Shown: positions 2,525 through 39,586 of the stretch, piece by piece
Layout: every line of letters starts with the position of its first letter
Numbering within the stretch: the stretch's first letter is position 1
Sequence record: MZ311862.1
Source of the DNA: Escherichia phage vB_EcoP_LNA3
Strand: one strand, 5' to 3'
Length of the DNA: 39,586 nucleotides
Program-made: the position numbers and the translations under genes
Notes under the pieces: generated by a model
What the model was told of the DNA's origin: nothing
What the model saw: the letters and a program-made list of their open reading frames with translations, nothing else
The model's database searches: none

Positions 2525-2531
2525 CTTATTG

Positions 2532-2581
2532 AAGGGCCTATAGATTTACCTTAACTATCACTATAGGGACTATAGGCCCTT
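2532..2581 (+). promoter_or_regulatory. perfect 12-bp inverted repeat (AAGGGCCTATAG / CTATAGGCCCTT) enclosing the gene 13 promoter; candidate RNase III site (T7 R13 position)
   Basis: Arms at 2532..2543 and 2570..2581 are exact reverse complements; the 26-nt loop holds the promoter core. Confidence 0.5.
2551..2569 (+). promoter_or_regulatory. phage RNA polymerase promoter (phi13 position)
   Basis: TTAACTATCACTATAGGGA, one of 11 copies of the conserved 19-mer; sits 32 bp upstream of the gene 13 start. Confidence 0.8.
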
Positions 2582-2600
2582 AAGGTTATAAGGAGACTTT

Positions 2601-3071
2601 ATGTATATTCGCAAGGCTACGGAACCGGATGTCCACTACTTTCTGTGGCATCTTTCAGCAGATGATGTTAATGAGTGCAAAGCAAACTATGGGTCAACCG
2701 TTGGTCTCTCTGAGAGACTGCTTAAGCATCTATCTCCTTCATCTGTGGTTTTAACGAACTGTGTAGGCGAAGTATTTGCCTATGGTGGAAACCAAGGGGA
2801 TAACGTATGGTTCTTGACTTCAAGTCTTGTCGAAAGGTTAAGTCCGAAAGACAAGCGGGAGTTCATTCAGCGCATCTCTGAGTACAGGGACTTAATGTTA
2901 GACCAATACGGGACCATCTGGAACTACGTGTGGTCAGGCAATAAGTCTCACATTAGATTCTTGCGGTTACTGGGAGCTAAGTTCCACCATGATGTGACTA
3001 TCAGTCCAGTAACAGGTGAGCGTTTTCAATTATTCACAATCTCTAAGGAGGACGTATGTGCGAACCCGTAA
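2601..3071 (+). CDS. internal virion protein A (gp13 position)
   Basis: 156-aa ORF with AAGGAG Shine-Dalgarno, between gp12 and gp14 as in T7; assigned by synteny only. Confidence 0.6.
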   Translation: MYIRKATEPDVHYFLWHLSADDVNECKANYGSTVGLSERLLKHLSPSSVVLTNCVGEVFAYGGNQGDNVWFLTSSLVERLSPKDKREFIQRISEYRDLMLDQYGTIWNYVWSGNKSHIRFLRLLGAKFHHDVTISPVTGERFQLFTISKEDVCANP

Positions 3072-3643
3072 GTATCGGTTTAGGTATCATGGCTGTAGCC
3101 GGGGCCACTATGTCCGCATCTCAACAGGCCAAAGCTGAGGGTGCTGCTATCGACGCTCAGAACAGACAGGCTCAGGAAATGGTTAAGCAGATGAACTACT
3201 CTGACGCCAACCTGAAGATGCAGGAGCGAGACCTGAAGGAGCAGCAGATGGCTGAACTGACAGAGACCACGTTAAATGGTATCCGCAATCATGGTATGGT
3301 CCGAGCTGCTGTAGCTGAGTCCGGTCTGGAAGGCAACTCTATGGACAGGATTGAACGTCAGGTCGCTGGAGACACAGTCAAGGAGAGAGCCGGGATTACC
3401 GAAAGCTACAACCGTGACTATGCGGCTATCTTCGGGAACCGTATCGCCAACATTGAGAACACCAAGTCTGCTATCCGTGGTCAAGGTACAATCATCAAGA
3501 CCAGCCCACTAGCTCATGCACTTAATGTTGCTAACGCCGGGATGCAGGGGTACGCTGCTGGTAAGTCAATATCTGGGGCATCAAGCTCTGGTGGTTCTGC
3601 ACCGATTAGTGCTGCTAAAGGCACACCTACAGGTCATAGCTAA
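3056..3643 (+). CDS. internal virion protein B (gp14)
   Basis: 195 aa starting MCEPVSIGLGIMAVAG..., hydrophobic N-terminus, Gln/Ala-rich, as in T7 gp14 (196 aa); TAAGGAGG upstream. Confidence 0.85.
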   Translation: MCEPVSIGLGIMAVAGATMSASQQAKAEGAAIDAQNRQAQEMVKQMNYSDANLKMQERDLKEQQMAELTETTLNGIRNHGMVRAAVAESGLEGNSMDRIERQVAGDTVKERAGITESYNRDYAAIFGNRIANIENTKSAIRGQGTIIKTSPLAHALNVANAGMQGYAAGKSISGASSSGGSAPISAAKGTPTGHS

Positions 3644-5942: not shown

Positions 5943-8900
5943 ATGGCGACTCGTGGTATTCGCAATAACAATCCGGGTAACATCCGGGTAAGTAAGGACC
6001 AATGGGAAGGAATGACTGGAGATGATGGCGCATTCGTCACCTTCGATAGTCCAGAGTCTGGCGTCCGAGCTTTAGGTAAAAACCTGCTGTCCTACGGTCG
6101 CCGAGGTTATGACTCCATCGAGAAGATTATCAACCGATGGGCACCTCCTAACGAGAACGACACTAAGGCTTATATTGACTCAGTGGTGGCTGCAACCGGT
6201 ATTCCAGCTACCCAGAGTCTCGACCTATCGAACCCGGACACCCTGTCTGCTCTGGCGCAAGCTATTAGCTTCCAGGAGACAGGCTCCCGGTACAATCCTG
6301 AAGTCTATCAGAAGGGAGTCGCACGGGCACTCAATGGCATTAGCCCAAAGACTCCACCAGTAAGCGCTAACGTATTTGACGCACTCACGGAAGGACTCAA
6401 GGCTAAACCTAAAGTAGCTCTGGGCGAGAACCTTCCGACCGCTGCTGGTCTAAACATTGAGGGTCAAGCACCTGAAGCTCCCAACGAATCGTTCGGTGAG
6501 ATGTTCTATAAGTCTACTGGCGAGACCATGCAGGAACGAGAGGATCGCTCTACGTGGTTCGGTTTCGGCTCGGCTACAGAAGCTGAAGTGAAGAACTCTA
6601 TGATCGGCGTGGCTATCCGCGCTGGTCAGACCGAGGACTCACTTGATGTCATTGGCGATGTGTTCAACCCTACCCGCTGGAACAACCATAAGTGGTCTCG
6701 TGAGGAGCTGGACCAGATTCGTAACGCTGGAGTTCTCCCTCAGTATTACGGTGTCATTACTGGCGGCTCCCCTCAGAACCTGACCGAGCTTATTAACTTA
6801 GCGCTTGAGAACCAGAAGTTGGACCAAGAGAAGGCCAAGGCTGGGACTGGTGCTCAGTTAGCTGCTGGTGTGATTGGCGCTGGTGTGGACCCTCTGACCT
6901 ACGTTCCTATCGCTGGACAGATTGGTAAGGGTGGCAAGCTGGTCAACAAGATGTTCACCGTGGCTGCTCAATCTGGAGCACTTGCTGGTGTATCAGAGAT
7001 GGCCCGTACCTCAGTGGCTGGTGGTGATGCTCATGTGGCTGAGGCTATCCTTGGCGGTGCTCTCTTCGGTGGAGGTATGACTGCTATCGCTGATGGTTTA
7101 GGCAGAGCTTTAGGTCGTAACACTAACGAGTTCGCTGGACCAGCCATACGTCTGGAAGCTCGTGAGACAGCCCGTAACGTTGATGGTCAGGACCTGTCTC
7201 GTCTACCTATTCAAGAAGGTGAGGAGACCTTTAGTCATCAAGGCGTTAAGTTCGCTGACGTTCCGAATGAGCCGGGTAGTGTACGACTGGAAGATGGTTC
7301 AATCCTGATTGGTGAAAACCCTCTGAACCCTAAGACACGTCAAGTCTTTGACGAAGTGATTGAGCCAGAACGTGCCGCTGCTGGTGTGAACCTTGGTGGA
7401 CTTACCGAGATTGGCCTGAAGCTGCTTCGGTCTGAGAACCCAGAGATTCGTGGAGTCGCTGCTGACTTAGTGCGTTCACCAACCGGTATGCAGTCAGGGG
7501 CCTCAGGTAAAATCGGGACCACTGCGTCAGACGTATTCGAGAGACTTCGTGCTGTGGACCATCGGTTCTACAACGACATCGACGATGCGGTTACTGAGGC
7601 ACTAAAGGACCCATACTTCCAGACAGCATTCTGGCGAGACTCTGGCGCATTCCGTCAGGACATCTACCAGCGTGTGTCTATGGCTATTGAAGACGGAAGT
7701 GGGAACCTGAAGGCTGAACTGACTCCGGGAGAACTGAAAGTCTATGACCTACTGAAGAACCAGTTTGACGCCAAGCGTGAGATGATGGAGAACCCGGCGA
7801 TGTTTGGTCGTCCAGACTCTCAGTCTATCTTTCCGGGTAGCCGCTTCAATGGAACCTACGTCCCTCATGTGTATAGCAAACAGATGAAGGAGCTGTACAT
7901 CAAGGAGCTTGGGAGTCCAGAGGCGTTGCAGGAGGCCATCAAGAAGTCATGGTTGACCAGCTATGCGTCTCGACCTGAAGTCAAGAAACGCGTGGACGAG
8001 GCACTCTTAGAGTCTGACCCTACGTTGACTCCAGAGGGACTTGCTGCTGCGGTCGATAAGTACGCCAACGATAAGGCTTACGGTATCTCCCACACCGAGC
8101 AGTTCGAACGTTCATCCGTAATGGAAGAGAACATCAACGGTCTGGTTGGTCTGGAGAACAACAGCTTCCTTGAGGCTCGTAACCTGTTCGATAGCGATAT
8201 GTCAATCGTCCTACCTAACGGTCAGACCTTCAGTGTCAACAACCTGCGTGAGTGGGACCTTGACAAGATTGTCCCGGCCTACAACCGTCGAGTTAATGGC
8301 GATATTGCTATCATGGCTGGTACAGGCAAAACCACGAAGGACATGAAGGACTTGGTTGAGACCATGATGAACAAGGCTGGGGATGACGGTAAGTTGAAAG
8401 GTGAAGTATCTACCTTACGTGACACCTTGAAGATTCTAACAGGTCGTGCTCGACGTGATGGTGCTGATGATGCAGCCTTCGCTACCGTGATGCGCACAAT
8501 GACAGACCTATCGTTCTTCGCTAAGAATGCCTACATGGGTGTTCAGAACTTAACGGAGATTGGTGGTATGCTGGCTCGTGGCAACGTTCGTGCAATGCTG
8601 CATGGAGTCCCGATTTTCCGTGACCTAGCCTTCCGTAACAAGAAGGTTGGGGCCTCAGAGATTAAGGACCTGCACAATGTTATCTTCGGTAAGGAACTGG
8701 ATGACTCAATCCGTCCGTCTAAACAGGATGTCATTGACCGTCTGCGATCTTACAGTGACCTCGGTCGTGGTACAGCTACAGCTCTGGGGACTGCCAAGTA
8801 TTACACTGGCGAACTTGCAGTACGCTCTCCGTTCACTAAAGTCCTCAACGGTACGACCAACTACCTGTTAGATGCTGGACGTCAAGGCTTCCTGTCTGAC

Positions 8901-9830
8901 ATCGTGGAGCATAGCCTGACTGGTAGTAAGCGTAAGTTCGATGACCGCTGGCTGAAGACCGCTGGTATATCTGACGAGCAGTGGAATGGCATTAAGTCCC
9001 TAATCCGTGAGTCAGTGACTCGTGGTCCAGACGGGAAGTATACCATCAATGATAAGAAGGCGTTCAGTCAGGACCCAAGGGCTATGGACCTATGGCGTAT
9101 GGGTGACACCATCGCTGACGAAACGTTACTACGTCCTCATAAGCTGTCCAACATGGACGCAAAGGCTTATGGTCCTCTAGCTAAGACTGTCCTTCAGTTT
9201 AAGAACTTCGTCATCAAGTCCATCAATGGACGTACCATGCGAACCTTCTATAACGCCACGAAGAACAACCGAGCGATGGACGCTGCCCTGTCCACTGTGA
9301 TCTCTATGGGTCTTGCCGGTATCTACTACGTGGCTCAGGCTCATGTCAAGGCTTACGCTATGCAGGATGGTCGAGACCGTGACTACCTCAAGCAAGCTCT
9401 AGACCCGACGATGATTGGATATGCAGCTCTATCACGTAGTTCACACCTTGGTGGACCACTTGGGGTAGCTAACCTTCTGGGTGGCATCGCTGGATATGAG
9501 GACACTAAGATGCTCCGTTCGTCTATCCTACCTCGTTCGCCTACAGAGAAGCCTGAACGTTCCATCGCGTATGGTGCAGCTACAAGTGACCCTGTGATGA
9601 ATGTTGTTGGTAACTTCTTGGAGCAGGTGCCAGCTTTCGGATATGCTGCTAACGTTGGCGCTTCGGCTTACAACTTGGCTGGCTACCTCAAGGCTGATAC
9701 TCGTGTCAACGAGCGTGACTACATGACCGGGATGTATAACACCTTCCGTGAACTGGTACCGAACGACCCGATTACTCAGAAGTTGTTACTGGGAACGTTT
9801 GAGGAGCAAGGTATCCACATCAAGGACTAA
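5943..9830 (+). CDS. internal virion protein D (gp16) with N-terminal lytic transglycosylase domain
   Basis: 1295 aa; N-terminus MATRGIRNNNPGNIR...WEGM...FVTFDSPESGVRALGKNLLSY resembles the gp16 transglycosylase motif (T7 gp16 is 1318 aa). Confidence 0.9.
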   Translation: MATRGIRNNNPGNIRVSKDQWEGMTGDDGAFVTFDSPESGVRALGKNLLSYGRRGYDSIEKIINRWAPPNENDTKAYIDSVVAATGIPATQSLDLSNPDTLSALAQAISFQETGSRYNPEVYQKGVARALNGISPKTPPVSANVFDALTEGLKAKPKVALGENLPTAAGLNIEGQAPEAPNESFGEMFYKSTGETMQEREDRSTWFGFGSATEAEVKNSMIGVAIRAGQTEDSLDVIGDVFNPTRWNNHKWSREELDQIRNAGVLPQYYGVITGGSPQNLTELINLALENQKLDQEKAKAGTGAQLAAGVIGAGVDPLTYVPIAGQIGKGGKLVNKMFTVAAQSGALAGVSEMARTSVAGGDAHVAEAILGGALFGGGMTAIADGLGRALGRNTNEFAGPAIRLEARETARNVDGQDLSRLPIQEGEETFSHQGVKFADVPNEPGSVRLEDGSILIGENPLNPKTRQVFDEVIEPERAAAGVNLGGLTEIGLKLLRSENPEIRGVAADLVRSPTGMQSGASGKIGTTASDVFERLRAVDHRFYNDIDDAVTEALKDPYFQTAFWRDSGAFRQDIYQRVSMAIEDGSGNLKAELTPGELKVYDLLKNQFDAKREMMENPAMFGRPDSQSIFPGSRFNGTYVPHVYSKQMKELYIKELGSPEALQEAIKKSWLTSYASRPEVKKRVDEALLESDPTLTPEGLAAAVDKYANDKAYGISHTEQFERSSVMEENINGLVGLENNSFLEARNLFDSDMSIVLPNGQTFSVNNLREWDLDKIVPAYNRRVNGDIAIMAGTGKTTKDMKDLVETMMNKAGDDGKLKGEVSTLRDTLKILTGRARRDGADDAAFATVMRTMTDLSFFAKNAYMGVQNLTEIGGMLARGNVRAMLHGVPIFRDLAFRNKKVGASEIKDLHNVIFGKELDDSIRPSKQDVIDRLRSYSDLGRGTATALGTAKYYTGELAVRSPFTKVLNGTTNYLLDAGRQGFLSDIVEHSLTGSKRKFDDRWLKTAGISDEQWNGIKSLIRESVTRGPDGKYTINDKKAFSQDPRAMDLWRMGDTIADETLLRPHKLSNMDAKAYGPLAKTVLQFKNFVIKSINGRTMRTFYNATKNNRAMDAALSTVISMGLAGIYYVAQAHVKAYAMQDGRDRDYLKQALDPTMIGYAALSRSSHLGGPLGVANLLGGIAGYEDTKMLRSSILPRSPTEKPERSIAYGAATSDPVMNVVGNFLEQVPAFGYAANVGASAYNLAGYLKADTRVNERDYMTGMYNTFRELVPNDPITQKLLLGTFEEQGIHIKD

Positions 9831-9846
9831 ACTATCACTATAGGAA
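9828..9846 (+). promoter_or_regulatory. phage RNA polymerase promoter (phi17 position)
   Basis: TAAACTATCACTATAGGAA, overlapping the gp16 stop codon and 50 bp upstream of gene 17. Confidence 0.75.
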
Positions 9847-9895
9847 ACTGGAGGCGCTACCATAGGTCTCCTTTTAATTCATAACAGGAGGCATA

Positions 9896-12800
9896 ATGTC
9901 CACGATTACACAATTCCCTTCAGGAAACACTCAGTACAGGATTGAGTTCGACTACCTAGCCAGAACGTTTGTTGTTGTTACGCTGGTGAATAGCTCTAAC
10001 CCTACCATGAACCGTGTACTGGAAGTTGGTCGAGATTACCGATTCCTTAATCCAACGATGATTGAGATGTTGGTTGACCAATCAGGTTTCGACATCGTTC
10101 GCATTCACCGTCAGACTGGAACTGACTTAGTGGTAGACTTCAGGAATGGCTCAGTGTTGACAGCTAGTGACCTGACAAATTCAGAGCTTCAGGCTATCCA
10201 TATTGCAGAAGAAGGTCGAGACCAAACGGTTGACTTAGCGAAGGAATATGCCGATGCTGCTGGTAGCTCTGCTGGCAACGCTAAGGATAGCGAGGACGAA
10301 GCACGCCGAATCGCTGCGAGTATCAGGGAAGCTGGTCTAATTGGCTATATTACCCGTCGCTCCTTCGAGAAAGGCTACAACGTTACAACATGGAGCGAGG
10401 TCCTGCTATGGGAAGAGGATGGTGATTATTACCGCTGGGATGGTACGCTTCCAAAGAACGTTCCTGCTGGTTCAACTCCTGAAACTTCCGGTGGGATTGG
10501 ATTAGGTGCGTGGGTTAGTGTTGGTGATGCTGCTTTAAGGAGTCAGATTTCAAACCCGGAAGGGGCAATACTCTACCCTGAATTACATAGAGCACGCTGG
10601 CTTGATGAAAAAGATGTTCGTGGTTGGGGTGCTAAAGGGGATGGTGTCACTGATGATACAGCAGCGTTAACGAGAGCATTAAACGACACACCGGTTGGAC
10701 AAAGGATTAATGGCAATGGGAAGACATATAAGGTCACATCCCTGCCTGACATTAGTCGCTTCATCGACACTCGTTTCGTTTATGAGCGCATTCCCGGACA
10801 ACCTCTTTATTATGCCTCTGAAGGATTTGTTCAGGGTGAGCTGTTCAAAATAACGGACACCCCTTATTACAATGCGTGGCCTCAAGATAAAGCCTTTGTA
10901 TACGAGAACGTAATCTACGCACCTTATATGGGTAGTGACCGTCACGGTGTTAGCCGTCTCCATGTGTCATGGGTTAAGTCTGGTGACGATGGTCAAACAT
11001 GGTCTACTCCAGAGTGGCTTACCGACTTGCACCCAGAGTATCCTACAGTGAACTATCATTGTATGAGTATGGGTGTATGTCGCAACCGTCTGTTTGCCAT
11101 GATTGAAACACGTACTTTAGCCAATAACGCATTAACCAATTGTGCATTGTGGGATCGCCCCATGTCTCGTAGCCTGCATCTTACTGGTGGTATCACTAAA
11201 GCTGCAAATCAGCGATATGCAACAATACATGTACCAGACCACGGACTATTCGTGGGTGATTTTGTTAACTTCTCTAATTCTGCGGTAACAGGTGTATCCG
11301 GTGATATGACTGTTGCAACCGTAATAGATAAGGACAACTTCACGGTTCTTACACCAAACCAGCAGACTTCAGATTTGAATAACGCTGGAAAGAATTGGCA
11401 CATGGGTACTTCTTTCCATAAGTCTCCATGGCGTAAGACAGATCTTGGTCTAATCCCTCGTGTCACAGAGGTGCATAGCTTTGCTACTATTGATAACAAT
11501 GGCTTTGTTATGGGCTATCATCAAGGTGATGTAGCTCCACGAGAAGTTGGGCTTTTCTACTTCCCTGATGCTTTCAATAGCCCATCTAATTATGTTCGTC
11601 GTCAGATACCATCTGAGTATGAACCAGATGCGGCAGAGCCGTGCATCAAGTACTATGACGGTGTATTATACCTTATCACTCGTGGCACTCGTGGGGATAG
11701 ACTAGGTAGCTCTTTGCATCGTAGTAGAGACATAGGTCAGACTTGGGAGTCACTGAGATTTCCACATAATGTTCATCATACTACATTACCTTTTGCTAAA
11801 GTAGGGGATGACCTTATTATGTTTGGTTCAGAACGTGCAGAAAATGAATGGGAAGCATGTGCACCAGATGATCGTTACAAGGCATCTTATCCTCGCACCT
11901 TCTATGCACGCTTGAATGTAAACAATTGGAATGCAGATGATATTGAATGGGTTAACATCACTGACCAGATTTATCAGGGCGGAATAGTTAACTCAGGTGT
12001 AGGCGTTGGTTCGGTAGTTGTGAAGGATAATTACATCTACTACATGTTTGGTGGAGAAGACCATTTTAACCCATGGACATATGGAGATAACTCAGCGAAG
12101 GATCCATTCAAATCAGATGGTCATCCCTCAGATTTGTATTGCTACAAACTGAAGATTGGCCCAGACAATCGTGTTTCCAGGGATTTCAGGTATGGTGCTG
12201 TACCTAACAGAGCTGTTCCAGTGTTTTTTGATACGAATGGGATTCGCACTGTTCCTGCGCCAATGGAATTTACAGGGGATTTGGGTTTAGGTCATGTGAC
12301 CATTAGAGCCAGCACCAGTAGTAACATTCGCTCTGAAGTTTTAATGGAAGGTGAATATGGGTTTATCGGGAAATCTATACCGACTGATAACCCGGCAGGG
12401 CAGCGCATCATATTTTGCGGGGGTGAAGGCACCAGTTCAACGACTGGCGCACAGATTACGCTTTATGGTGCAAATAACACCGACTCAAGGCGAATAGTTT
12501 ACAACGGGGATGAGCATCTATTTCAGAGTGCTGATGTTAAGCCTTATAACGATAACGTCACTGCGCTTGGTGGGCCTAGCAACCGTTTCACCACCGCATA
12601 CCTCGGAAGTAACCCTATTGTTACTTCTAACGGGGAGAAGAAAACAGAGCCGGTAGTTTTTGATGATGCTTTCCTGGATGCCTGGGGTGACGTTCGCTAC
12701 ATCATGTACCAGTGGTTAGATGCTGTTCAACTGAAAGGCAATGATGCTCGTATTCACTTCGGGGTTATTGCTCAGCAAATTCGTGATGTATTCATTGCAC

Positions 12801-13090
12801 ATGGTCTGATGGACGAAAACAGTACGAATTGTCGTTATGCTGTTCTGTGCTATGACAAGTATCCACGGATGACCGATACGGTATTTTCGCACAATGAAAT
12901 CATTGAACACACTGACGAGGAGGGTAATGTCACTACTACGGAAGAACCTGTGTACACCGAGGTGGTTATTCACGAAGAGGGTGAGGAGTGGGGTGTTCGG
13001 CCTGACGGAATTTTCTTTGCTGAAGCCGCTTATCAGAGAAGAAAACTGGAAAGAATCGAAGCCAGACTTTCTGCTCTTGAACAGAAGTAA
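9896..13090 (+). CDS. tail spike: T7 gp17-like N-terminal adaptor fused to an endosialidase (endo-N-acetylneuraminidase) with a C-terminal intramolecular chaperone domain
   Basis: 1064 aa. N-terminus (FDYLARTFVVVTL) is like the T7 tail fibre N-terminus; the rest matches my memory of the K1F endosialidase, including Ser/Lys at positions 911/916 (SNGEKK) at the start of the last 154 residues. Confidence 0.85.
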   Translation: MSTITQFPSGNTQYRIEFDYLARTFVVVTLVNSSNPTMNRVLEVGRDYRFLNPTMIEMLVDQSGFDIVRIHRQTGTDLVVDFRNGSVLTASDLTNSELQAIHIAEEGRDQTVDLAKEYADAAGSSAGNAKDSEDEARRIAASIREAGLIGYITRRSFEKGYNVTTWSEVLLWEEDGDYYRWDGTLPKNVPAGSTPETSGGIGLGAWVSVGDAALRSQISNPEGAILYPELHRARWLDEKDVRGWGAKGDGVTDDTAALTRALNDTPVGQRINGNGKTYKVTSLPDISRFIDTRFVYERIPGQPLYYASEGFVQGELFKITDTPYYNAWPQDKAFVYENVIYAPYMGSDRHGVSRLHVSWVKSGDDGQTWSTPEWLTDLHPEYPTVNYHCMSMGVCRNRLFAMIETRTLANNALTNCALWDRPMSRSLHLTGGITKAANQRYATIHVPDHGLFVGDFVNFSNSAVTGVSGDMTVATVIDKDNFTVLTPNQQTSDLNNAGKNWHMGTSFHKSPWRKTDLGLIPRVTEVHSFATIDNNGFVMGYHQGDVAPREVGLFYFPDAFNSPSNYVRRQIPSEYEPDAAEPCIKYYDGVLYLITRGTRGDRLGSSLHRSRDIGQTWESLRFPHNVHHTTLPFAKVGDDLIMFGSERAENEWEACAPDDRYKASYPRTFYARLNVNNWNADDIEWVNITDQIYQGGIVNSGVGVGSVVVKDNYIYYMFGGEDHFNPWTYGDNSAKDPFKSDGHPSDLYCYKLKIGPDNRVSRDFRYGAVPNRAVPVFFDTNGIRTVPAPMEFTGDLGLGHVTIRASTSSNIRSEVLMEGEYGFIGKSIPTDNPAGQRIIFCGGEGTSSTTGAQITLYGANNTDSRRIVYNGDEHLFQSADVKPYNDNVTALGGPSNRFTTAYLGSNPIVTSNGEKKTEPVVFDDAFLDAWGDVRYIMYQWLDAVQLKGNDARIHFGVIAQQIRDVFIAHGLMDENSTNCRYAVLCYDKYPRMTDTVFSHNEIIEHTDEEGNVTTTEEPVYTEVVIHEEGEEWGVRPDGIFFAEAAYQRRKLERIEARLSALEQK

Positions 13091-13222
13091 TAAACAAAAC
13101 CCTTTTGCCATTAAGTTGGTGGGTAGATGTTAGAAGGTTGCAGAGGTAGAGGCTAACTACACTCTAACCAACGTATGTAACAACTTTGGGTCACGGACGA
13201 CCTGCTTTAAACTGGAGGTTTT

Positions 13223-13417
13223 ATGATTGAGTTAGACTTCAAGAATGAGGTCCTTAAAGCCTCTCCTATCGTCGGGACCGCTGCGGCTGATGGTGCCAGT
13301 CGGTTCTTCTTTGGACTCACACTGAACGAATGGTTCTACGTTGCGGCTATCGCGTACACCGTTGTCCAAATTGGTGTGCTGGTCTACAAAACGATTAAAG
13401 GAGGTGGTAAAACATGA
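13223..13417 (+). CDS. holin (gp17.5)
   Basis: 64 aa, MIELDFKNEVLKASPIVGT...LNEWFYVAAIAYTVVQIG closely matches T7 gp17.5. Confidence 0.85.
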   Translation: MIELDFKNEVLKASPIVGTAAADGASRFFFGLTLNEWFYVAAIAYTVVQIGVLVYKTIKGGGKT

Positions 13418-13677
13418 CGCAGATGGACTTAGAGAAGTTCCTATTGATGCTGGATACTGAACGTGCTCGACTCATGCTGCAAGACTTACGTGACGACTCT
13501 AAGCGTTCACCTCAGCTCTACAACGCCATTGAGAAGCTGCTTGCTCGTCACAACTTTGTGTTAAGTAAGGTGTCTGTGGACGAGAAGACGCTGGCTGATA
13601 TGGAGGCCCTGAACGCAGAGTACGATAAGGTGCTTTCAGCGACTGAGGATAATGACACAGGGTATGGTGTTCAATAA
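13414..13677 (+). CDS. terminase small subunit (gp18)
   Basis: 87 aa with the conserved RSPQLYNAIEKLLARH motif; start overlaps the holin stop (ATGA). Confidence 0.85.
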   Translation: MTQMDLEKFLLMLDTERARLMLQDLRDDSKRSPQLYNAIEKLLARHNFVLSKVSVDEKTLADMEALNAEYDKVLSATEDNDTGYGVQ

Positions 13678-13682
13678 GTGTT

Positions 13683-13726
13683 AGACTCAAGGTCATTACT
13701 ATATGTAGTGGCCTTTATGGTTAACA
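13683..13726 (+). ncRNA. conserved hairpin element, candidate RNase III site (T7 R18.5 position)
   Basis: TAGACTCAAGGTCAT-loop-GTGGCCTTTATGGTTAAC; the AAGGTCAT/GTGGCCTT stem recurs at 22245 and 29603 with different loops. Confidence 0.45.
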
Positions 13727-13778
13727 CTAACTAGTGGAGGCGACTCTGCGTGAAATCTGATAAACCGGGAGGGCAACT

Positions 13779-14228
13779 ATGCTCGAATTTTTAAAGAGAG
13801 CGGCTCCGTGGTTACTTGCAGCAGTGATGTTTGCTGGTGGCTACCACACCGCTAACAATAAGTGGGAGGCTAAGGTCAATGCAGAATACACCTCGAATCT
13901 TAAGGCATCGGAAGATACAAGGCTTGCTGTCCAAGCTGAAGTCAACAAAGTGTCAAAACGGTTTCAGGACGAAATGTCCTCGCTGGAAGGCAGCACTGAT
14001 AGGATTATTGCTGACCTTCAGTCTGACAATAAGCGGCTGCGCATCCGAGTCAAACCAACGAGTGGAACCACGCAAAGTGACGGTCGATGCGTCATTGATG
14101 GTTACGCCGAACTTGACGAACGAGATGCTAAACGTCTTATCGCCATCGGAGTGAAAGGAGACAAGTGGATTAAGGCCCTTCAGGACACTGTGAGAGCCTT
14201 GCAGCAAGATAAGGAGGTGACGCATTGA
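13779..14228 (+). CDS. i-spanin (Rz-like, gp18.5)
   Basis: 149 aa with N-terminal membrane anchor ([12 protein letters not shown]), after gp18 as in T7. Confidence 0.8.
13879..14154 (+). CDS. o-spanin (Rz1-like lipoprotein, gp18.7), embedded in +1 frame within 18.5
   Basis: Embedded ORF with signal peptide and lipobox ([16 protein letters not shown]), similar to T7 gp18.7; GGGAGG 9 nt upstream of the chosen ATG. Confidence 0.6.
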   Translation: MQNTPRILRHRKIQGLLSKLKSTKCQNGFRTKCPRWKAALIGLLLTFSLTISGCASESNQRVEPRKVTVDASLMVTPNLTNEMLNVLSPSE

Positions 14229-15988
14229 GTAAAGATTTAGTGGCGCGTCAGGCGCTAATGACTGCCCGTATGAAGGCAGACTTCGTGTTCTTCCTGTTCG
14301 TCCTGTGGAAAGCTCTGTCACTACCAGTCCCGACTCGCTGTCAGATTGACATGGCGAAGAAACTATCGGCTGGGGACAACAGGCGTTTCATCCTACAGGC
14401 GTTCCGTGGTATCGGGAAGTCATTCATTACGTGCGCATTCGTGGTATGGAAACTGTGGAACAACCCAGACTTGAAGTTCATGATTGTGTCGGCCTCAAAG
14501 GAACGAGCCGATGCAAACTCCATCTTCATCAAGCGAATCATCGACCTCATGCCTCAGCTTCGGGAACTCAAACCTAAGCAGGGGCAGCGAGATGCGGTTA
14601 TCAGCTTCGACGTTGGACCAGCCAAGCCAGACCACTCACCTTCGGTTAAGTCAGTTGGTATCACTGGTCAGTTGACTGGTAGTCGTGCTGACATCCTGAT
14701 TGCCGATGACGTGGAGGTTCCGAACAACTCAGCGACTCAGGCTGCCCGAGACCGTCTGTCAGAGCTTGTGAAAGAGTTCGACGCTATCCTGAAGCCGGGA
14801 GGTACAATCATCTATCTGGGTACTCCTCAGAACGAGATGACCTTGTATCGTGAGCTGGAAGGCCGTGGGTACACCACTACTATCTGGCCTGCTCGTTATC
14901 CACGCGACAGGAAGGACTGGCAGTCTTACGGCGACCGTCTGGCTCCAATGCTTCAGGCAGAGCTTGAAGAGGACCCTGAGTCATTCTACTGGCGTCCGAC
15001 TGATGAAGTACGCTTCGATGATACGGACCTTAAGGAACGTGAGCTGTCATATGGTAAGGCTGGCTTCGCTCTACAGTTCATGCTTAACCCGAACCTGAGT
15101 GATGCCGAGAAGTACCCACTGAAGCTCCGTGACCTTATCGTAGCGGACTTGGACCCAGCGTCCAGCCCAATGGTCTACCAATGGTTACCGAACCCTCAGA
15201 ACAAGCGTGAGGACGTTCCTAACGTTGGACTCATGGGTGACTCGTACCACACGTATCAGACTGTAGGTTCTGCCTTCAGCTCATACACCCAGAAGATTCT
15301 GGTCATTGACCCTAGTGGTCGTGGTAAGGATGAAACTGGCTATGCGGTACTGTACCAGCTTAATGGCTACATCTTCGCTATGGAAGTTGGTGGTATGCGT
15401 GGTGGTTATGAAGACTCTACGCTTGAAGCACTGGCTAAGATTGGTCGTAAGTGGAAGGTCAACGAATACGTCATTGAGGGTAACTTCGGTGATGGTATGT
15501 ACCTTGAGCTATTCAAGCCTGTAGCGGCCCGTATCCATCCTGCGGCTGTAACTGAAGTGAAGAGTAAGGGTCAGAAAGAACTCCGCATCTGTGACGTTCT
15601 GGAGCCTATCATGGGGTCTCACCGACTTATCGTTAACGCTGCTGCTATCGTTCAAGACTACCAGTCAGCCTCTGATAAGGATGGTGTTCGTAACCCTATC
15701 TACTCTCTCTTCTACCAGATGACACGTATATCTCGTGAACGTGGAGCCTTGGCACACGATGACCGACTTGATGCTCTGGCTATCGGTGTACAGTTCTTCG
15801 TGGAGTCTATGGCTAAGGATGCCAACAAGGGCGAACGTGAAGTCACTGAGGAGTGGCTGGAGGAACAGATGGAGAACCCACGGAAAGGCTTCGAGTCCAT
15901 CCACACTGAGTTCTGGGACAATGGGGTCCGGGTAACTCATAATACGGACGACGAGCTGGGACTAGGGTCCTACGTTACGTTCCACTAG
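14225..15988 (+). CDS. terminase large subunit (gp19)
   Basis: 587 aa closely matching T7 gp19 ([29 protein letters not shown]...). Apparent TTG start 7 nt after AAGGAGG; an ATG at 14258 is the alternative. Confidence 0.9.
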
Positions 15989-16084
15989 CTGAATGAATAA
16001 CTATAGGCGAAAACTGAATTAATAAGCAGTTAGTAACCTATAGTTACTACCAGTCTAACCTACTGTTTTACAAGGAGTTTGGAC

Positions 16085-16103
16085 TTAACTATCACTATAG
16101 GGA
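16085..16103 (+). promoter_or_regulatory. phage RNA polymerase promoter (phiOR position)
   Basis: TTAACTATCACTATAGGGA downstream of gene 19, before the right-end region. Confidence 0.75.
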
Positions 16104-16279
16104 AGACCCCCGGTTACTTATAGTATTACTGTAGTGAATATACATATGCAGACTTTATGCAAGACCTTAGGAGGCAGACTCCGAGTTCTTACCTAAGGCT
16201 TGCACCGATGGAAGGAGGGTGATATTAATCATCACACCCTCATAACTTAAGTAGACCCAAGAGACAGGAGGTATGTAGC

Positions 16280-16438
16280 ATGGGTAAGACCAAGGCTGTT
16301 CTTAAAGCTCTGGCGACCAATAGAGCTACGTACAGGTTTCTTGCTGCTGTTCTACTTGCTGCTGGCGTTACTGCTGGAAGTCAGTGGGTCTGGTGGGTCG
16401 AGACTCTCGTATGTACTCTGGTGTCTGAGTGTCATTAA
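16280..16438 (+). CDS. small hydrophobic protein (gene 19.5 position)
   Basis: 52-aa ORF (MGKTKAVLKALATNRATYRFLAAVLLAAGVTAGSQWVWWVETLV...) with AGGAGG 6 nt upstream; below the ORF-track cutoff. Confidence 0.45.
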   Translation: MGKTKAVLKALATNRATYRFLAAVLLAAGVTAGSQWVWWVETLVCTLVSECH

Positions 16439-16676
16439 CGCCATCATGGTAACAATCAACGAAAGCAAGACCTAAGGTCAGTTCATAGCTGACGCTACTC
16501 TACTGACCTTAGCTACTGTAGTCAAGGACTTTAGGTAACACCTTAAGAGAAGCTCACTTAGGGTCATCCTACTTATTGGTCTATCCTAGTGTCGCCTGAC
16601 CTACGGTCCTTGACCTACAGTGGCTGTGGCCTACAGTAGTGACGATGAGTTTTGGACCAAAAGTTTGAGACCACAT

Positions 16677-16853
16677 CTCACAGTTCAAGAACCTCAAGTC
16701 TCCCCATAGGCCCTCTTTCAGTCAGACCAAAGGCCCTACCCCAGTCTATCATAAGGCTGGACCGATGGTCAAGACTTCAGGTCAACGATAGGTGGTGACT
16801 ATGGCTTAGGGAAGGACGATAGGTGGTGACTATAGGTCTGTCTTTGAGTCTCT
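16677..16853 (+). repeat. predicted terminal-repeat region; genome left end predicted at about 16677
   Basis: TCTCACAGTT...ACCTCAAGTCTCCCCATAGG parallels the remembered T7 left terminus TCTCACAGTG...ACCTAAAGTTCCCCCATAGG; ...GTCTTTGAGTCTCTATCTGT parallels the end of the T7 repeat. Boundaries approximate (about +/-30 bp). Confidence 0.5.
16785..16833 (+). repeat. 18-bp direct repeat ACGATAGGTGGTGACTAT, two copies
   Basis: Exact copies at 16785..16802 and 16816..16833, 31 bp apart, inside the predicted terminal repeat. Confidence 0.7.
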
Positions 16854-16870
16854 ATCTGTATCAGACCATA

Positions 16871-16950
16871 AGTCACTAACCTACAGTCTCACTAACCTAC
16901 AGTCTCACTAACCTACAGTCTCACTAACCTACAGTCTCACTAACCTACAG
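16871..16950 (+). repeat. tandem array of 16-bp units TCTCACTAACCTACAG (four perfect copies plus one near-copy)
   Basis: Perfect units at 16887, 16903, 16919 and 16935; degenerate CCTACAG-containing units continue to about 16995 and also occur at 16600..16640. Confidence 0.9.
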
Positions 16951-17103
16951 TCTCAACCATAAGACACCAACACCTACAGTCATAGACCTACAGTTACTAG
17001 ACACAAAGCTATAGACTTAAGGTCAAAGACATGTTAGTCAAAGACTATATCCTATTACACCATGGGGCCGACGATAGCTTAATCAATATTATTTCAAATT
17101 ACC

Positions 17104-17132
17104 TATTGACTATAGGTCTAGACTATGGCTTA
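17104..17132 (+). promoter_or_regulatory. host sigma70-type early promoter (T7 A1-like)
   Basis: TTGACT, 17-bp spacer, CTTAAT; the TTGACT-ATAGG context resembles the remembered T7 A1 promoter. Confidence 0.5.
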
Positions 17133-17246
17133 ATAGCTTCCGTCAACACGACACGGCAACAACCGGATAGTGAAGACGCCTGGTCATCCCGGTTAAGTAG
17201 ACAGCCTGATAAGTCATACGAACAACAGGCAGATGACAGAAAGTAG

Positions 17247-17275
17247 TTGACAAGAAGTAAGACTTAAAGTAGTAT
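17247..17275 (+). promoter_or_regulatory. host sigma70-type early promoter (T7 A2/A3-like)
   Basis: TTGACA, 17-bp spacer, TAGTAT. Confidence 0.5.
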
Positions 17276-17429
17276 GTACCACATCAACACGAAACAACGG
17301 TGAAGCCTAACACTGAAACAGGCTAGCACGGCGACGACAGCCAGTGCGAATGCTCTTTAACAATCTGGATAACTCTTAATGTGCGCCGATAGCGACTAAC
17401 TACATGGCCTTTAGTCTACATCTGAAGGC

Positions 17430-17449
17430 CCTGACTGATAGTCACTAAC
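17430..17449 (+). repeat. 20-bp conserved element CCTGACTGATAGTCACTAAC, copy 1
   Basis: Identical copy at 17747..17766; each lies about 15-30 bp upstream of a gene start. Copy 1 follows a GGCCTT/AAGGCC hairpin (17407..17428). Confidence 0.7.
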
Positions 17450-17465
17450 TTAACGGATGGACACT

Positions 17466-17711
17466 ATGAAACACTTAAGCACAATCACTAATCGCAATGA
17501 AGTATTCGTGAACACTAAAGGTTATGCGTGGATTCAGCTTAAAGAGATGAGAGGAGCGCGTCACCGTGTGGTAGTTCGCAAGGTATCAAGCAAGCCGTTC
17601 AGCAACTACAGCGTAGATACTATGCGTATAGACAACGAGACTTACCTGATAGACTCGCAGATAACCGTGCGTCCTACAGCGGGCATCTCAGCTCCTTATT
17701 TCGCTAACTGA
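17466..17711 (+). CDS. hypothetical early protein upstream of the Ocr-like gene
   Basis: 81 aa from ATG 17466 (84 aa from ATG 17457); first ORF after the early promoters; no similarity I recognise. Confidence 0.5.
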   Translation: MKHLSTITNRNEVFVNTKGYAWIQLKEMRGARHRVVVRKVSSKPFSNYSVDTMRIDNETYLIDSQITVRPTAGISAPYFAN

Positions 17712-17746
17712 GAGTGATTAACTACAGGTCGTTAGACTGATAGCGG

Positions 17747-17766
17747 CCTGACTGATAGTCACTAAC
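17747..17766 (+). repeat. 20-bp conserved element CCTGACTGATAGTCACTAAC, copy 2
   Basis: Exact repeat of 17430..17449, just upstream of the Ocr-like gene. Confidence 0.7.
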
Positions 17767-17794
17767 ACATAATTAACTTTGAGAGGATATAACT

Positions 17795-18298
17795 ATGGAA
17801 CGTAATGCTAACGCATACTATGAGCTGCTGGCTGCAACCGTTGAGGCATTTATCGAGCGTATTCAGTACGACCACCTGACTCAAGATGATGACTACAGCG
17901 ATGCGCTGCATGAGGTCGTAGACGGTCAGGTTCCCCACTATTACCACGAGATTTTTACGGTGATGGCTGCTGATGGTATAGACCACGAGTTCGAAGACTC
18001 TGGGATGATGCCTGAAACCAAGGACGTAACGCGTATACTACAAGCTCGCATCTATGAGGCGCTTTATAACGATGTGTCTAATAGCTTGGATGTAGTCTGG
18101 TTTGAGGCTGAAGAGGCAGACGAAGAGGATGAATATTGGGTAGTTGACGCTAAAACAGGCGCAATAATTGTGCAAGCTGTAGCTCTTGAGGTCGCTACTG
18201 CATGTGCCAAGGTCAACTATGCAATAGGTCGCCACCTGAAGGTGGAAGACATCAATGATAACGTAGTGTTCGACCCTGCGGCTGAGGACTGCGAGTGA
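17795..18298 (+). CDS. ocr: Ocr-like anti-restriction protein (gene 0.3 homologue) with C-terminal extension
   Basis: [45 protein letters not shown] matches the T7 Ocr core; 167 aa versus 117 in T7. Confidence 0.8.
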
Positions 18299-18447
18299 TG
18301 GTAACTTATGGTCTCTGCCAGCACCACGTCGCCAACGCCCGGCTTATGGTCAAGACCGGGCGGTTAACCCATGATGAGACTATGCGTATCCTGAAGGTGG
18401 TCTACAAGCGCCGCAAGCGCATACACGACAGTTTGCACGCTGAGTGA
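18298..18447 (+). CDS. small basic hypothetical protein (gene 0.4 position)
   Basis: 49-aa ORF coupled to the Ocr-like gene by a TGATG overlap; below the ORF-track cutoff. Confidence 0.4.
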   Translation: MVTYGLCQHHVANARLMVKTGRLTHDETMRILKVVYKRRKRIHDSLHAE

Positions 18448-18513
18448 TAAACGAGAGGTCACGACTGATAGGTGGCCTCAAAGATTACCACTTACATTGA
18501 TAGGAGAATTACT

Positions 18514-18681
18514 ATGAAATTTACAATCATCGCACTTTACGTAACCATTATTCTATCTTGGCTTACTGCGGTGCTCACTGATGGTAACGCATTACGACTG
18601 GGCTGGCTGGCAGTGGACATTATATTCTCTCCGGTAGGTGTCGTGCGCGGTATCTTGATGTGGATTGGACTGGCAGGATAA
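18514..18681 (+). CDS. small membrane protein (hypothetical)
   Basis: 55 aa with two hydrophobic segments; TAGGAG 5 nt upstream of ATG 18514 (the track's 18472 start lacks a Shine-Dalgarno). Confidence 0.5.
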   Translation: MKFTIIALYVTIILSWLTAVLTDGNALRLGWLAVDIIFSPVGVVRGILMWIGLAG

Positions 18682-18684
18682 ACT

Positions 18685-18882
18685 ATGAGTCTTGCACTAT
18701 TGATAGCCATAGGCTATGGACTTATCGCCTACGTGCTGGTGAGAGACATCAACAAAGCGCGTGAAGTCTACAAATTCAACTATGTACGTCTGGGCCGCTG
18801 GACTGTACGTCAACCTAACGGACAATTCATGCGCAACTTAGCGAACGTCTGGGATATAGCAACTATTGGGAGCAAACTGTAA
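18685..18882 (+). CDS. small membrane protein (hypothetical)
   Basis: 65 aa with N-terminal hydrophobic segment MSLALLIAIGYGLIAYVLV. Confidence 0.5.
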   Translation: MSLALLIAIGYGLIAYVLVRDINKAREVYKFNYVRLGRWTVRQPNGQFMRNLANVWDIATIGSKL

Positions 18883-19142
18883 TGAAAACCGTATACATTA
18901 ACAAACCATCTAGCCATAGCCGTGTAGAGCAAATAGAGCGTGACATGTTCTTACATCGCCGCATGAGGGCTGAGGGCCATAAGTACGAACTGATGAGTCT
19001 GGCGTTTGGTGGACGACCGATCACTGACGATGGTAAACTTTTAGTCTCAGGCTGGAAGGCGATAGACCAACGGTCAACCATCAAGCACACGACTCACGGT
19101 GACTTCAGCCATCTCAACGCTAACCCTCTGATATGCAAGTGA
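18882..19142 (+). CDS. hypothetical early protein
   Basis: 86-aa ORF coupled by a TAATGA overlap to the preceding gene; occupies the slot where T7 has the gene 0.7 kinase. Confidence 0.5.
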   Translation: MKTVYINKPSSHSRVEQIERDMFLHRRMRAEGHKYELMSLAFGGRPITDDGKLLVSGWKAIDQRSTIKHTTHGDFSHLNANPLICK

Positions 19143-19149
19143 TTCTGAC

Positions 19150-19167
19150 TTAACTATCACTATAGGA
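19150..19167 (+). promoter_or_regulatory. phage RNA polymerase promoter directly upstream of the RNA polymerase gene
   Basis: TTAACTATCACTATAGGA about 72 bp before the gene 1 ATG. Confidence 0.7.
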
Positions 19168-19239
19168 CTCAAGGTCTAAGACTCCAAGTGAAAGACCAAA
19201 GAGACTTTAAGTGAAAGACTAATAACAAGGACTTTAAGT

Positions 19240-39069: not shown

Positions 39070-39186
39070 GCTTAAAGTGAGGATGATTATGTTTTACTTA
39101 CTTACAGCCTTGGGACTATTTGTTAGTTTCTGGGCGATTATACTATTAACCGGACCATGCAGTCCTTACGACAGATAGGAGGGAGT

Positions 39187-39586
39187 ATGGCTCAATACAT
39201 TCCACTGAATGCTAACGATGACTTAGACGCTATCAACGATATGTTAGCTGCTATCGGTGAACCGGCAGTCCTACAGCTTGACGAGGGGAACGCTGACGTC
39301 TCGAACGCCCAACGTATCCTGCATCGTGTCAATCGTCAGGTCCAAGCTAAAGGCTGGAACTTTAACATCAATGAAGCTGCTGTCCTGACACCTGATGTCC
39401 AAGACAATAGGATTCGATTCTTGCCGTCATACCTTCGTGTAATGACCGCTGGGGCCACCAGCTACTACAGCAACATGGGTGGATACCTGTACGACCTGTC
39501 CACTCAGTCGACCACTTTCACCGACCCTATCACGGTAGAGCTTGTGGAGATGAAGCCATTCTCCGAGATGCCTGTGGTCTTCAGGG
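39187..39586 (+). CDS. tail tubular protein A (gp11), N-terminal part; continues at 1..167
   Basis: MAQYIPLNANDDLDAINDMLAAIGEP...ILHRVNRQVQAKGWNFNI...EMPVVFR matches the T7 gp11 N-terminal region; GGAGGGAG Shine-Dalgarno; truncated by the window end. Confidence 0.85.
   Translation, partial: MAQYIPLNANDDLDAINDMLAAIGEPAVLQLDEGNADVSNAQRILHRVNRQVQAKGWNFNINEAAVLTPDVQDNRIRFLPSYLRVMTAGATSYYSNMGGYLYDLSTQSTTFTDPITVELVEMKPFSEMPVVFR

Follow-up and report, generated by a model that had tools for sequence, protein, structure and literature searches.

The closest described relative of the locus analysed here is endoNF, the gp17 protein of Escherichia phage K1F (AM084414/DQ111067; PDB 1v0e, 3gvl and 3gw6), whose gene is annotated 'endosialidase, tail spike protein'. 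EndoNF has a three-domain architecture, and its catalytic residues H350, R549, E581, R596 and R647 are functionally important and intolerant of substitution (PMC12632334). Maturation proceeds by autoproteolysis: according to PMC3828593 and PMC8326128, a dyad of S911 and K916, assisted by R897, cuts the chain just N-terminal to S911. This stalk arginine is reported to be crucial to autocleavage (PMC8326128), and roles for S911, N912, K916, G956 and R897 are given in PMC3742443, PMC3828593 and PMC8326128. The K1F record lists two mature peptides: gp17*, which spans codons 2-910, and gp17-CTD, the 'intramolecular triple-beta-helix chaperone domain' of codons 911-1064. Swapping the enzymatic part of K1F gp17 transfers K1 specificity and changes the host (PMC13352976).

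The window, by which we mean the whole 39,586-nt stretch from Escherichia phage vB_EcoP_LNA3 (MZ311862.1), appears to be a complete phage genome. Sequence comparison places it in the genus Kayfunavirus, among the K1F-like Studiervirinae of the T7-group podoviruses; of 25 kb outside gene 17, 93-96% aligns with PhiNW-B1, SR04 and vB_EcoP_F, relatives that infect K1 strains, at 94-95% identity. The open reading frame at 9896..13090 is a genuine gene (Table 1). It lies between gp16 (5943-9830) and homologues of gp17.5 and gp18 (13223-13677) that match those of K1F, which gives the K1F order gp16, gp17, gp17.5 holin, gp18; the genes on its 3' side are, as in K1F, holin, gp18, gp18.5 and gp19. The motif CACTATAGG occurs nine times in the window, always on the plus strand, against 0.3 copies expected by chance, and the nine have the longer consensus cTaAactatCACTATAGG in common. 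The site at 9826..9848 probably acts as a promoter, to judge from its likeness to promoters of the T7 type. Sigma-70-like promoters within gene 17 were at chance level (6 against 6.4 expected). In the 132-nt spacer that follows the gene (13091-13222), we found no terminator-like site, and the RNA fold was no better than that of shuffled sequences (z = -0.45). Antisense and out-of-frame reading frames nested in gene 17 (for example, 12716-13111 on the minus strand and 12894-13133 on the plus strand) were taken as mechanical, because all convincing genes are on the plus strand and collinear with K1F.

Table 1. Features of the gene 17 locus, in window coordinates.
Feature	Residues	Nucleotides	Strand	Evidence or remark
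Putative phage-RNA-polymerase promoter, ctaaactatCACTATAGGaaact		9826..9848	+	Promoter-like site immediately 5' of gene 17; overlaps gene 16 stop codon
Shine-Dalgarno AGGAGG		9886..9891	+	4 nt 5' of gene 17 ATG; read from sequence
Gene 17, tailspike precursor (endosialidase endoNF allele)	1-1064	9896..13090	+	ORF with ATG start; 1064 aa; computed mass 119.1 kDa
T7 gp17-type tail-attachment anchor	10-115	9923..10240	+	PF03906, E 9.9e-16, 58.3 bits (cut-off 25.2)
TSP1/gp66-type 'Tail_spike_N' domain (second N-terminal domain)	156-211	10361..10528	+	PF18668, E 4.5e-19
Mature catalytic part	246-910	10631..12625	+	PF12218, PF12217, PF12195, PF12219; PDB 3gvl/1v0e
N-terminal cap	246-312		+	Part of catalytic part
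Six-bladed beta-propeller	313-754		+	Part of catalytic part
Beta-barrel inserted in propeller	424-506	11165-11413	+	
Triple-beta-helix stalk	757-910	12164-12625	+	PF12219, 268.6 bits
Arg897 codon, stalk	897	12584..12586	+	Invariant in the alignment of six endosialidases
C-terminal intramolecular chaperone/autocleavage domain (CTD, Peptidase_S74)	911-1064	12626..13087	+	17.9 kDa
SNGEKK	911-916	12626..12643	+	Ser911 nucleophile, 12626-12628; Lys916 general base, 12641-12643

Gene 17 is 97.7-97.8% identical over its full length to the DNA of gene 17 in K1F and vB_EcoP_F. Among phage records, 240 match it, and in 29 the match takes in 80% or more of the gene. At the protein level, 22 of 1,064 residues differ from K1F gp17 (97.9% identity), and the two proteins agree in length, genomic position and domain order, in the Thr910-Ser911 site, and in the catalytic, polysialic-acid-binding and dyad residues. 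By sequence, gene 17 is an allele of K1F gp17. The analysis directly shows how the gene is built, that it is nearly identical to endoNF, that each functionally assigned residue checked is conserved, that base composition is anomalous and that the module occurs in other phage lineages. We consider it nearly certain that gp17 is a K1F-type endosialidase tailspike precursor with a self-shedding CTD, and the sole tailspike of a K1F-like phage. We found no evidence contradicting an endoNF-type tailspike, apart from minor caveats concerning the private substitutions discussed below. An earlier note, made from the sequence alone, had read the gene in this way. Each element of that reading fits either direct sequence evidence or publications on the K1F protein, with corrections to the domain boundaries and to the sharpness of a compositional break; given 98% identity to a well-studied tailspike, the feature it described was already known.

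Pfam identified seven domains in gp17, each above its cut-off and in the expected order, and solved structures with ~97-98% identity span residues 1-264 (9vvr), 245-910 and 790-1064. The central region is strongly similar to endosialidases: the endoNF structures 3gvl and 1v0e match residues 245-910 with E = 0, and the four catalytic-part profiles lie far above their cut-offs, with 730 bits for PF12217 (cut-off 24), 161 for PF12195 (35) and 124.7 for PF12218 (26.3). The family had thus been recognised correctly in the earlier note, which gave the module ~900 residues; the enzyme proper comprises 665 (residues 246-910). In an alignment of six endosialidases from five phage lineages, the sialidase active-site residues His350, Arg549, Glu581, Arg596 and Arg647 are invariant, and all are kept in gp17. 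Also present are R866, D994 and the stalk residues Arg837, Ser848 and Gln853, the last three of which we take to be the polysialic-acid binding site of the endoNF stalk. At 98% identity to a characterised enzyme, gp17 would be expected to have endosialidase activity.

The C-terminal domain is equally well defined. PF13884 matches residues 914-971 (37.8 bits, cut-off 22), and PDB 3gw6 matches residues 790-1064 (E 5.3e-185). A search with residues 890-1064 returned 3gw6 again (E 2.6e-117), whose chain has Ala at 911 and is the S911A construct, as well as GA-1 gp12 (PDB 3gud; E 1.8e-15). Residues 901-925 read AYLGSNPIVT/SNGEKKTEPVVFDDA, which places Ser911 at nt 12626-12628; codon 911, where the K1F gp17-CTD annotation begins, likewise corresponds to window position 12626. 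The positions proposed earlier for Ser911 and Lys916 are confirmed by the sequence, and the 154-residue chaperone domain by the K1F mature-peptide start, PF13884 and 3gw6; the dyad site is that of the endoNF papers. S911 and K916 are invariant across the alignment, and S911, N912, K916, G956 and stalk R897 are all present. The motif is SNGEKK here and SNGERK in K1F, the former being commoner among relatives. By analogy with published endoNF work, the scissile bond would be Thr910-Ser911 and the CTD would be shed after trimer folding, giving products with computed masses of 101.3 and 17.9 kDa.

At the other end of the protein, similarity to T7 gp17 had been proposed for the first ~150 residues. 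The similarity holds (PDB 7boz matches residues 6-116 with E 1e-15, and 8dsp likewise), with the T7-like part confined to residues 10-115 and a second domain at residues 156-211 that had been missed. Residues 149-264, which include the latter, are matched by PDB 4oj5, 5w6h, 6nw9 and 9occ. The virion anchor, as judged from these matches, is thus built of two domains, one T7 gp17-like and one TSP1/gp66-type. Matches to other phages stop at gene nt 633-641, 712 or 759-766, and others start at nt 524, 562 or 717, which points to natural recombination junctions at about residues 175-255 rather than at residue 150. The zone holding these junctions comprises residues 156-211 and 212-253.

Beyond this zone, the same module, 81-95% identical in DNA, follows other N-termini in the siphovirus IME207 (Shuimuvirus), the N4-like UE-M3 (Gamaleyavirus) and YX22 (Ackermannviridae); in Vectrevirus, the propeller alone matches, at ~90% DNA identity. 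Such similarity between phage families that are unrelated and differ in their N-termini is evidence that the module has moved laterally, whatever the cause of its composition. Horizontal exchange of the endosialidase module, which the earlier note had put forward as acquisition, is supported by these comparisons. The phages that match gene 17 over its full length are those of K1 strains; Kayfunaviruses whose match is confined to the first ~635-760 nt have Salmonella Typhi, Klebsiella or Hafnia as hosts. Together with published endoNF work, this suggests that the module determines host range and K1 specificity.

Base composition had been offered as a sign of this acquisition, with AT-rich codon usage said to begin at about nt 10560. 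The AT-richness is clear. Gene 17 has the lowest GC3 of the 28 genes, 0.396, whereas the other 27 pooled reach 0.556 (Fisher p 2.6e-23). At 10560..13090, GC is 0.449 (mean of the window, 0.498), which falls in the 1st percentile among equal-length windows; none outside this interval has GC that low. The left edge did not hold. The best GC3 change-point within the gene falls after codon 174 (nt ~10417) and is not significant (LLR 3.25, permutation p 0.24), and two-state GC segmentation (3-20 kb) fuses gene 17 with a low-GC region at ~16-19 kb into one segment (9780-19279), so that the module is not delimited. Low GC3 spans the whole of gene 17, and a break at nt 10560 is not resolvable. GC and GC3 of the K1F reference allele equal those found here, and composition is therefore stable within the lineage.

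This gene-wide depression leaves room for a different account of the composition, in which low GC3 is an intrinsic or selected trait of tailspikes (for example, slow translation aiding the folding of beta-rich trimers), or marks a gene long resident in the genome whose composition has never approached that of the backbone, rather than a recent acquisition. The absence of a significant internal change-point and the equal GC and GC3 of the K1F allele both fit this account, as does the anchor common to all Kayfunaviruses, which is itself slightly low (codons 1-174, GC3 0.483 against 0.556, p 0.055). In YX22, moreover, low GC extends over the entire tailspike cluster (locus 15.6-28.6 kb; 0.42-0.45 against ~0.49-0.50) and not the endosialidase only. 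Against it, GC3 alone is depressed while GC1 and GC2 of gene 17 are ordinary, so amino-acid composition is not the cause; module GC stays at ~0.43-0.455 in five phage backbones that themselves range from ~0.43 to ~0.50; and the sharing of the module, at 81-95% DNA identity, among unrelated families is direct evidence of lateral movement. We regard this account as rather unlikely.

Eight substitutions in gp17 (L38M, K270R, N291D, E310G, D381E, K410N, G655C and M752L) are absent from the seven other K1F-type alleles. K410N affects a lysine once proposed as a 'gateway', G655C introduces a new Cys eight residues past Arg647, and S580A, which three other K1F-type alleles share, adjoins Glu581; through these three changes the allele could differ from endoNF in function or work less well. 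An essential role of K410 in vitro has been reported (cited in PMC12632334), yet in the deep mutational scan of K1F this position tolerates broad substitution, and a clonal K410A phage plates normally, which marks the lysine as dispensable (PMC12632334). All three positions also vary naturally among endosialidases (410 K/S/N, with Ser in UE-M3 and YX22; 580 S/A; 655 G/N/C). The frame is intact and full length, every catalytic and dyad residue is kept, and the gene sits within an apparently complete phage genome, and we regard impairment as very improbable. A subtler effect of the private substitutions on polysialic-acid processing or strain discrimination, through K410N, G655C near Arg647, and the propeller changes E310G, D381E and M752L, is only slightly less improbable. 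If real, it could concern O-acetylated K1 or differing O-antigen backgrounds, for instance, and the substitutions would be a natural counterpart to the adaptive variants of the K1F scan. That residues 151-245 form a branching domain to which another receptor-binding protein docks, in the manner of K1-5, KP32 or CBA120, giving the phage two spikes, is the least credible alternative: the region matches PF18668, the N-terminal domains of CBA120 TSP1, TSP3 and TSP4 and those of other multi-spike phages, but we found no second tailspike-sized ORF in the window, where holin, gp18, gp18.5 and gp19 follow gene 17, and PMC13352976 calls K1F a mono-RBP phage, with simple anchor attachment.

For the preferred reading, a single endoNF-type tailspike, published endoNF work supplies the folding, cleavage, enzymatic activity and host specificity, and the following course can be proposed. 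Transcription, probably from the phage-polymerase promoter just 5' of the gene, would lead to a 119-kDa gp17 precursor, three chains of which would assemble. Correct folding of the stalk would bring Arg897, Ser911 and Lys916 into register, whereupon Lys916 would activate Ser911 to attack the Thr910-Ser911 bond, freeing the 17.9-kDa domain and leaving a very stable 101-kDa mature trimer. Six such trimers would be attached to the tail by the N-terminal ~245 residues, with their T7 gp17-type and TSP1/gp66-type domains. The enzyme-plus-chaperone cassette would be mobile, with recombination in the conserved residues ~175-255, and would thereby set host range.

As a host-range determinant of a K1-capsule-specific phage, gene 17 bears on phage therapy against neonatal-meningitis and urinary strains of E. 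coli K1, and also on endosialidase as a reagent for polysialic acid. This significance is already established for K1F gp17, to which the present gene adds one more natural allele. The modest additions are a finer map of natural anchor-enzyme recombination (residues ~175-255), the maintenance of module GC near 0.45 across five phage backbones, and K410N as a natural variant consistent with K410 being dispensable during infection.

Compared with known systems beyond K1F, the endosialidases of IME207, UE-M3, YX22 and AAPEc6 have a homologous propeller, stalk and Ser/Lys CTD at 73-90% protein identity, and those of Vectrevirus, IME207, UE-M3 and YX22 each carry their own N-terminal attachment region fitted to the virion. 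The Vectrevirus enzyme (K1E/K1-5/AAPEc6 type) is without the long CTD insertion, and its DNA match is limited to gene nt 901-2279; the phi92 and CUS-3 endosialidases give short DNA matches only. The T7 gp17 tail fibre (PF03906; PDB 7boz), whose gene likewise lies between gene 16 and the holin, is homologous over the N-terminal ~115 residues. It continues into a coiled-coil fibre with an LPS-binding tip, whereas the protein described here goes on to a capsule depolymerase by way of a TSP1/gp66-type domain. The tailspikes of other Kayfunaviruses (for example, PDB 9vvr, 843 residues; vB_EcoP-101120B1-2) are almost identical to gp17 from residue 1 to ~252, through GWGAKGDGVTD, and differ in their central receptor-degrading domain while sharing an S74-type Ser-x4-Lys end. 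Separately, MZ234022 carries a frameshifted relic of the 3' end of the endoNF CTD downstream of its different spike. More widely, Ser-x4-Lys and trimerisation-dependent self-cleavage are common to the Peptidase S74/ICA proteins (GA-1 gp12, 3gud; the T5 L-shaped fibre; K5 lyase; eukaryotic MYRF/MrfA). The endoNF-type CTD is set apart by a long beta-hairpin 'tentacle' (T977-H1026) that touches the stalk and by its dependence on R897, both of which MYRF lacks.

The tailspike precursor gp17 is the endosialidase that the earlier note had recognised. Gene 17 shares 97.7–97.8% DNA identity over its full length with gene 17 of Escherichia phages K1F and vB_EcoP_F, and the catalytic-part structure of the K1F enzyme, endoNF, matches gp17 aa 245–910 with E = 0. 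The K1F and window proteins, both of 1064 residues, align without gaps and differ at 22 positions. At least 80% of the gene is covered by 29 phage records. The identical protein is recorded from a single NCBI contig of 39,586 bases, and gp17 shares a 71-member protein cluster, built at 90% identity, with the K1F enzyme. Because gp17 is a textbook, experimentally dissected protein, the feature is already known. A partial sequence of 180 aa in the same cluster (WP_455942504.1), named 'phage tail fiber domain-containing protein', is attributed to Pantoea dispersa and lies on a 2.5-kb contig; it possibly reflects phage DNA contaminating a bacterial assembly. The endosialidase gene also occurs, at 96.6% identity and divided between two CDS, in a record that gives Acinetobacter baumannii as the phage's host (PV615262.1, Acinetobacter phage vB_Aba_01KA; PV615263.1) and whose backbone is ~94% identical to that of the window. 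For a phage with a K1-capsule depolymerase, such a host assignment seems doubtful.

As in K1F, gene 17 is flanked 5' by gp16 and 3' by the gp17.5 lysis protein, gp18, gp18.5 and gp19. The core of its upstream promoter-like site, CACTATAGG, occurs nine times in the window, always on the + strand, compared with a chance expectation of 0.3. An extended consensus is common to all nine sites (upstream part cTaAactat), which presumably serve the phage RNA polymerase as promoters in the vB_EcoP_LNA3 genome.

Gene 17, its upstream signals and the domains of gp17
Feature	Position	Strand	Detail
Gene 17 ORF	9896..13090	+	ATG start, 1064 aa
AGGAGG ribosome-binding site of gene 17	4 nt 5' of ATG		
T7-type phage-polymerase promoter-like site (…ctaaactatCACTATAGGaaact) 5' of gene 17	core 9836-9844	+	
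CACTATAGG copies	2559, 9836, 16093, 19158, 22234, 23866, 33931, 36752, 37737	+	
Phage_T7_tail	aa 10-115		Pfam
Tail_spike_N (TSP1/gp66 type)	aa 156-211		Pfam
End_N_terminal	aa 246-312		Pfam
End_beta_propel	aa 313-754		Pfam
End_beta_barrel, insert within propeller	aa 424-506		Pfam
End_tail_spike (stalk)	aa 757-910		Pfam
Peptidase_S74	aa 914-971		Pfam

A Pfam search of gp17 returned seven domains in order, each over its curated cut-off, and solved structures together span almost all of the protein. The T7 gp17 N-terminus structure matches aa 6–116, bearing out a T7-type adaptor; the virion-attachment anchor nevertheless has two domains, the second being Tail_spike_N. The enzyme module, put at ~900 aa in the earlier note, is refined to 665 aa. 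The endoNF stalk and C-terminal domain (CTD) construct 3gw6, which carries Ala at 911 and is thus the non-cleavable S911A form, matches aa 790–1064 (E 5e-185).

The self-cleavage site lies where it had been placed. Residues 901–925 read AYLGSNPIVT-SNGEKK-TEPVVFDDA, which puts Ser911 at nt 12626–12628 and Lys916 at nt 12641–12643. K1F record AM084414 labels gene 17 'precursor of gp17, endosialidase, tail spike protein', with mature peptides gp17* (codons 2–910) and gp17-CTD (codons 911–1064, 'intramolecular triple-beta-helix chaperone domain'); moved onto the window, the latter lands on 12626..13087, exactly the chaperone domain proposed from the sequence. The precursor has a computed mass of 119.1 kDa, the mature chain one of 101.3 kDa and the CTD one of 17.9 kDa. 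All other residues with an assigned function are also present: His350, Arg549, Glu581, Arg596 and Arg647, together with Arg866/Asp994, Arg897, Asn912 and Gly956, and Arg837, Ser848 and Gln853 of the polysialic-acid binding site in the stalk.

The K1F tailspike is a homotrimer of N-terminal virion-binding, central catalytic and C-terminal chaperone domains; the catalytic domain bears three polysialic-acid binding sites, and the chaperone domain is required for folding and removed by cleavage at maturation (PMC12632334). EndoNF is cut N-terminal to S911 by a Ser/Lys dyad with K916 as general base (PMC3828593). Because this cleavage depends critically on stalk residue R897, only a correctly folded triple beta-helix sets it off (PMC8326128). 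By analogy with this work on the 98%-identical K1F protein, gp17 would fold, trimerise and release its CTD in the same way.

We compared the window allele with seven other K1F-type alleles. Eight changes are private to it: L38M, K270R, N291D, E310G, D381E, K410N, G655C and M752L. It reads SNGEKK, the commoner state, where K1F has SNGERK. K410 was once reported essential in vitro, but in the K1F mutational scan it tolerated substitution, and a K410A phage plated normally (PMC12632334). Position 410 is Ser in UE-M3 and YX22. No residue of established necessity is altered by the window-allele changes. Divergence from K1F is uneven: ~1 nt in 100 differs across the hinge (aa 151–245) and CTD (911–1064), compared with 2.7 in 100 across the T7-type anchor (aa 1–150) and catalytic part (246–910), a pattern that may reflect mosaic ancestry within the K1F-type alleles themselves.

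Horizontal acquisition, with which the codon usage had been called consistent, is supported, with homology providing stronger evidence than composition. The cassette of enzyme and CTD recurs in the siphovirus IME207 (Shuimuvirus; 94.8% DNA identity, starting at gene nt 524), N4-like UE-M3 (82.5%, nt 717) and the Ackermannviridae phage YX22 (81.5%, nt 562), and the propeller alone in Vectrevirus (~90%, gene nt 901–2279); the N-terminus differs in each. Conversely, many Kayfunaviruses match gene 17 over nt 1–635 or 1–760 and diverge beyond. The Kayfunavirus tail spike PDB 9vvr is almost identical to gp17 over aa 1–252 and departs directly after GWGAKGDGVTD (aa 253). As cassette starts and Kayfunavirus match ends define the same segment, common to both groups, the natural junctions lie within aa ~175–255 rather than at aa 150, the anchor/enzyme boundary first drawn. 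In vB_EcoP-101120B1-2 (MZ234022.1), a remnant of gene 17 (its last ~200 nt) and of the spacer after it (about 3040–3260) sits downstream of a different 843-aa tailspike. Annotated as a 54-aa 'tail fiber protein', this remnant is near-identical to the window but frameshifted by two 1-nt indels, a deletion and an insertion. Its presence suggests descent from a K1F-type phage in which another spike took over the locus.

The AT-richness of 10560–13090 is real (GC 0.449, the 1st percentile among equal-length windows, with none outside the interval as low), but it has no resolvable edge. Gene 17 has a GC of 0.457 against 0.502 in the remainder of the window, and its GC at third codon positions (GC3), 0.396 against 0.556 pooled over 27 other genes (Fisher p 2.6e-23), is the lowest among 28 genes; GC1 and GC2 are ordinary. 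This depression spans the whole gene, codons 1–174 being themselves slightly low (0.483), and a GC3 change-point scan within it gave a non-significant best split after codon 174 (permutation p 0.24), so a break at about 10560 is not demonstrable. Module GC stays at ~0.43–0.455 across backbones of ~0.43 (UE-M3), ~0.45 (AAPEc6), 0.464 (IME207) and ~0.50 (YX22, window). Further low-GC stretches (0.42–0.46) lie at 2501–3000 and at 16001–17500. The second of these separates gene 19 from the early region and is probably where the ends of the genome and its early non-coding sequence are found.

Gene 17 is better conserved than its backbone, at 97.8% against its best relatives, while 25 kb of the remaining genome (13091–38090) reach only 94–95% identity over 93–96% coverage; the window may thus represent a distinct Kayfunavirus species with a well-conserved K1 module. 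An ORF of ~198 aa from its first Met (start MQSLRQIGGSMAQYIPLNANDDL…) runs in frame across the window ends (39127–39586 joined to 1–164), just 5' of a gp12-like gene (167–2524). The genome assembly thus appears complete and circularly permuted, with the window opened inside gene 11, which by position would encode tail tubular protein A.

That the module sets host range agrees with isolation hosts and with published spike swaps. Phages with full-length gene 17 matches were isolated on K1 strains (O18ac:K1:H7, UTI89, 'K1 LU_100'), and Kayfunaviruses matching only the first ~635–760 nt on Salmonella Typhi, Klebsiella or Hafnia. Engineered phages have shown transfer of host specificity both when KP32 was given the enzymatic part of K1F gp17 and when a Klebsiella spike was placed on the K1F anchor (PMC13352976). 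At its C-terminus the 9vvr spike, a non-endosialidase sharing its anchor with gp17, likewise carries an S74-type domain, including a Ser-x4-Lys motif of its own (…VVSDARDKTEP…; chain A 695–793 against gp17 aa 890–996), and a self-cleaving chaperone is thus common to alternative spikes at the gene 17 locus.
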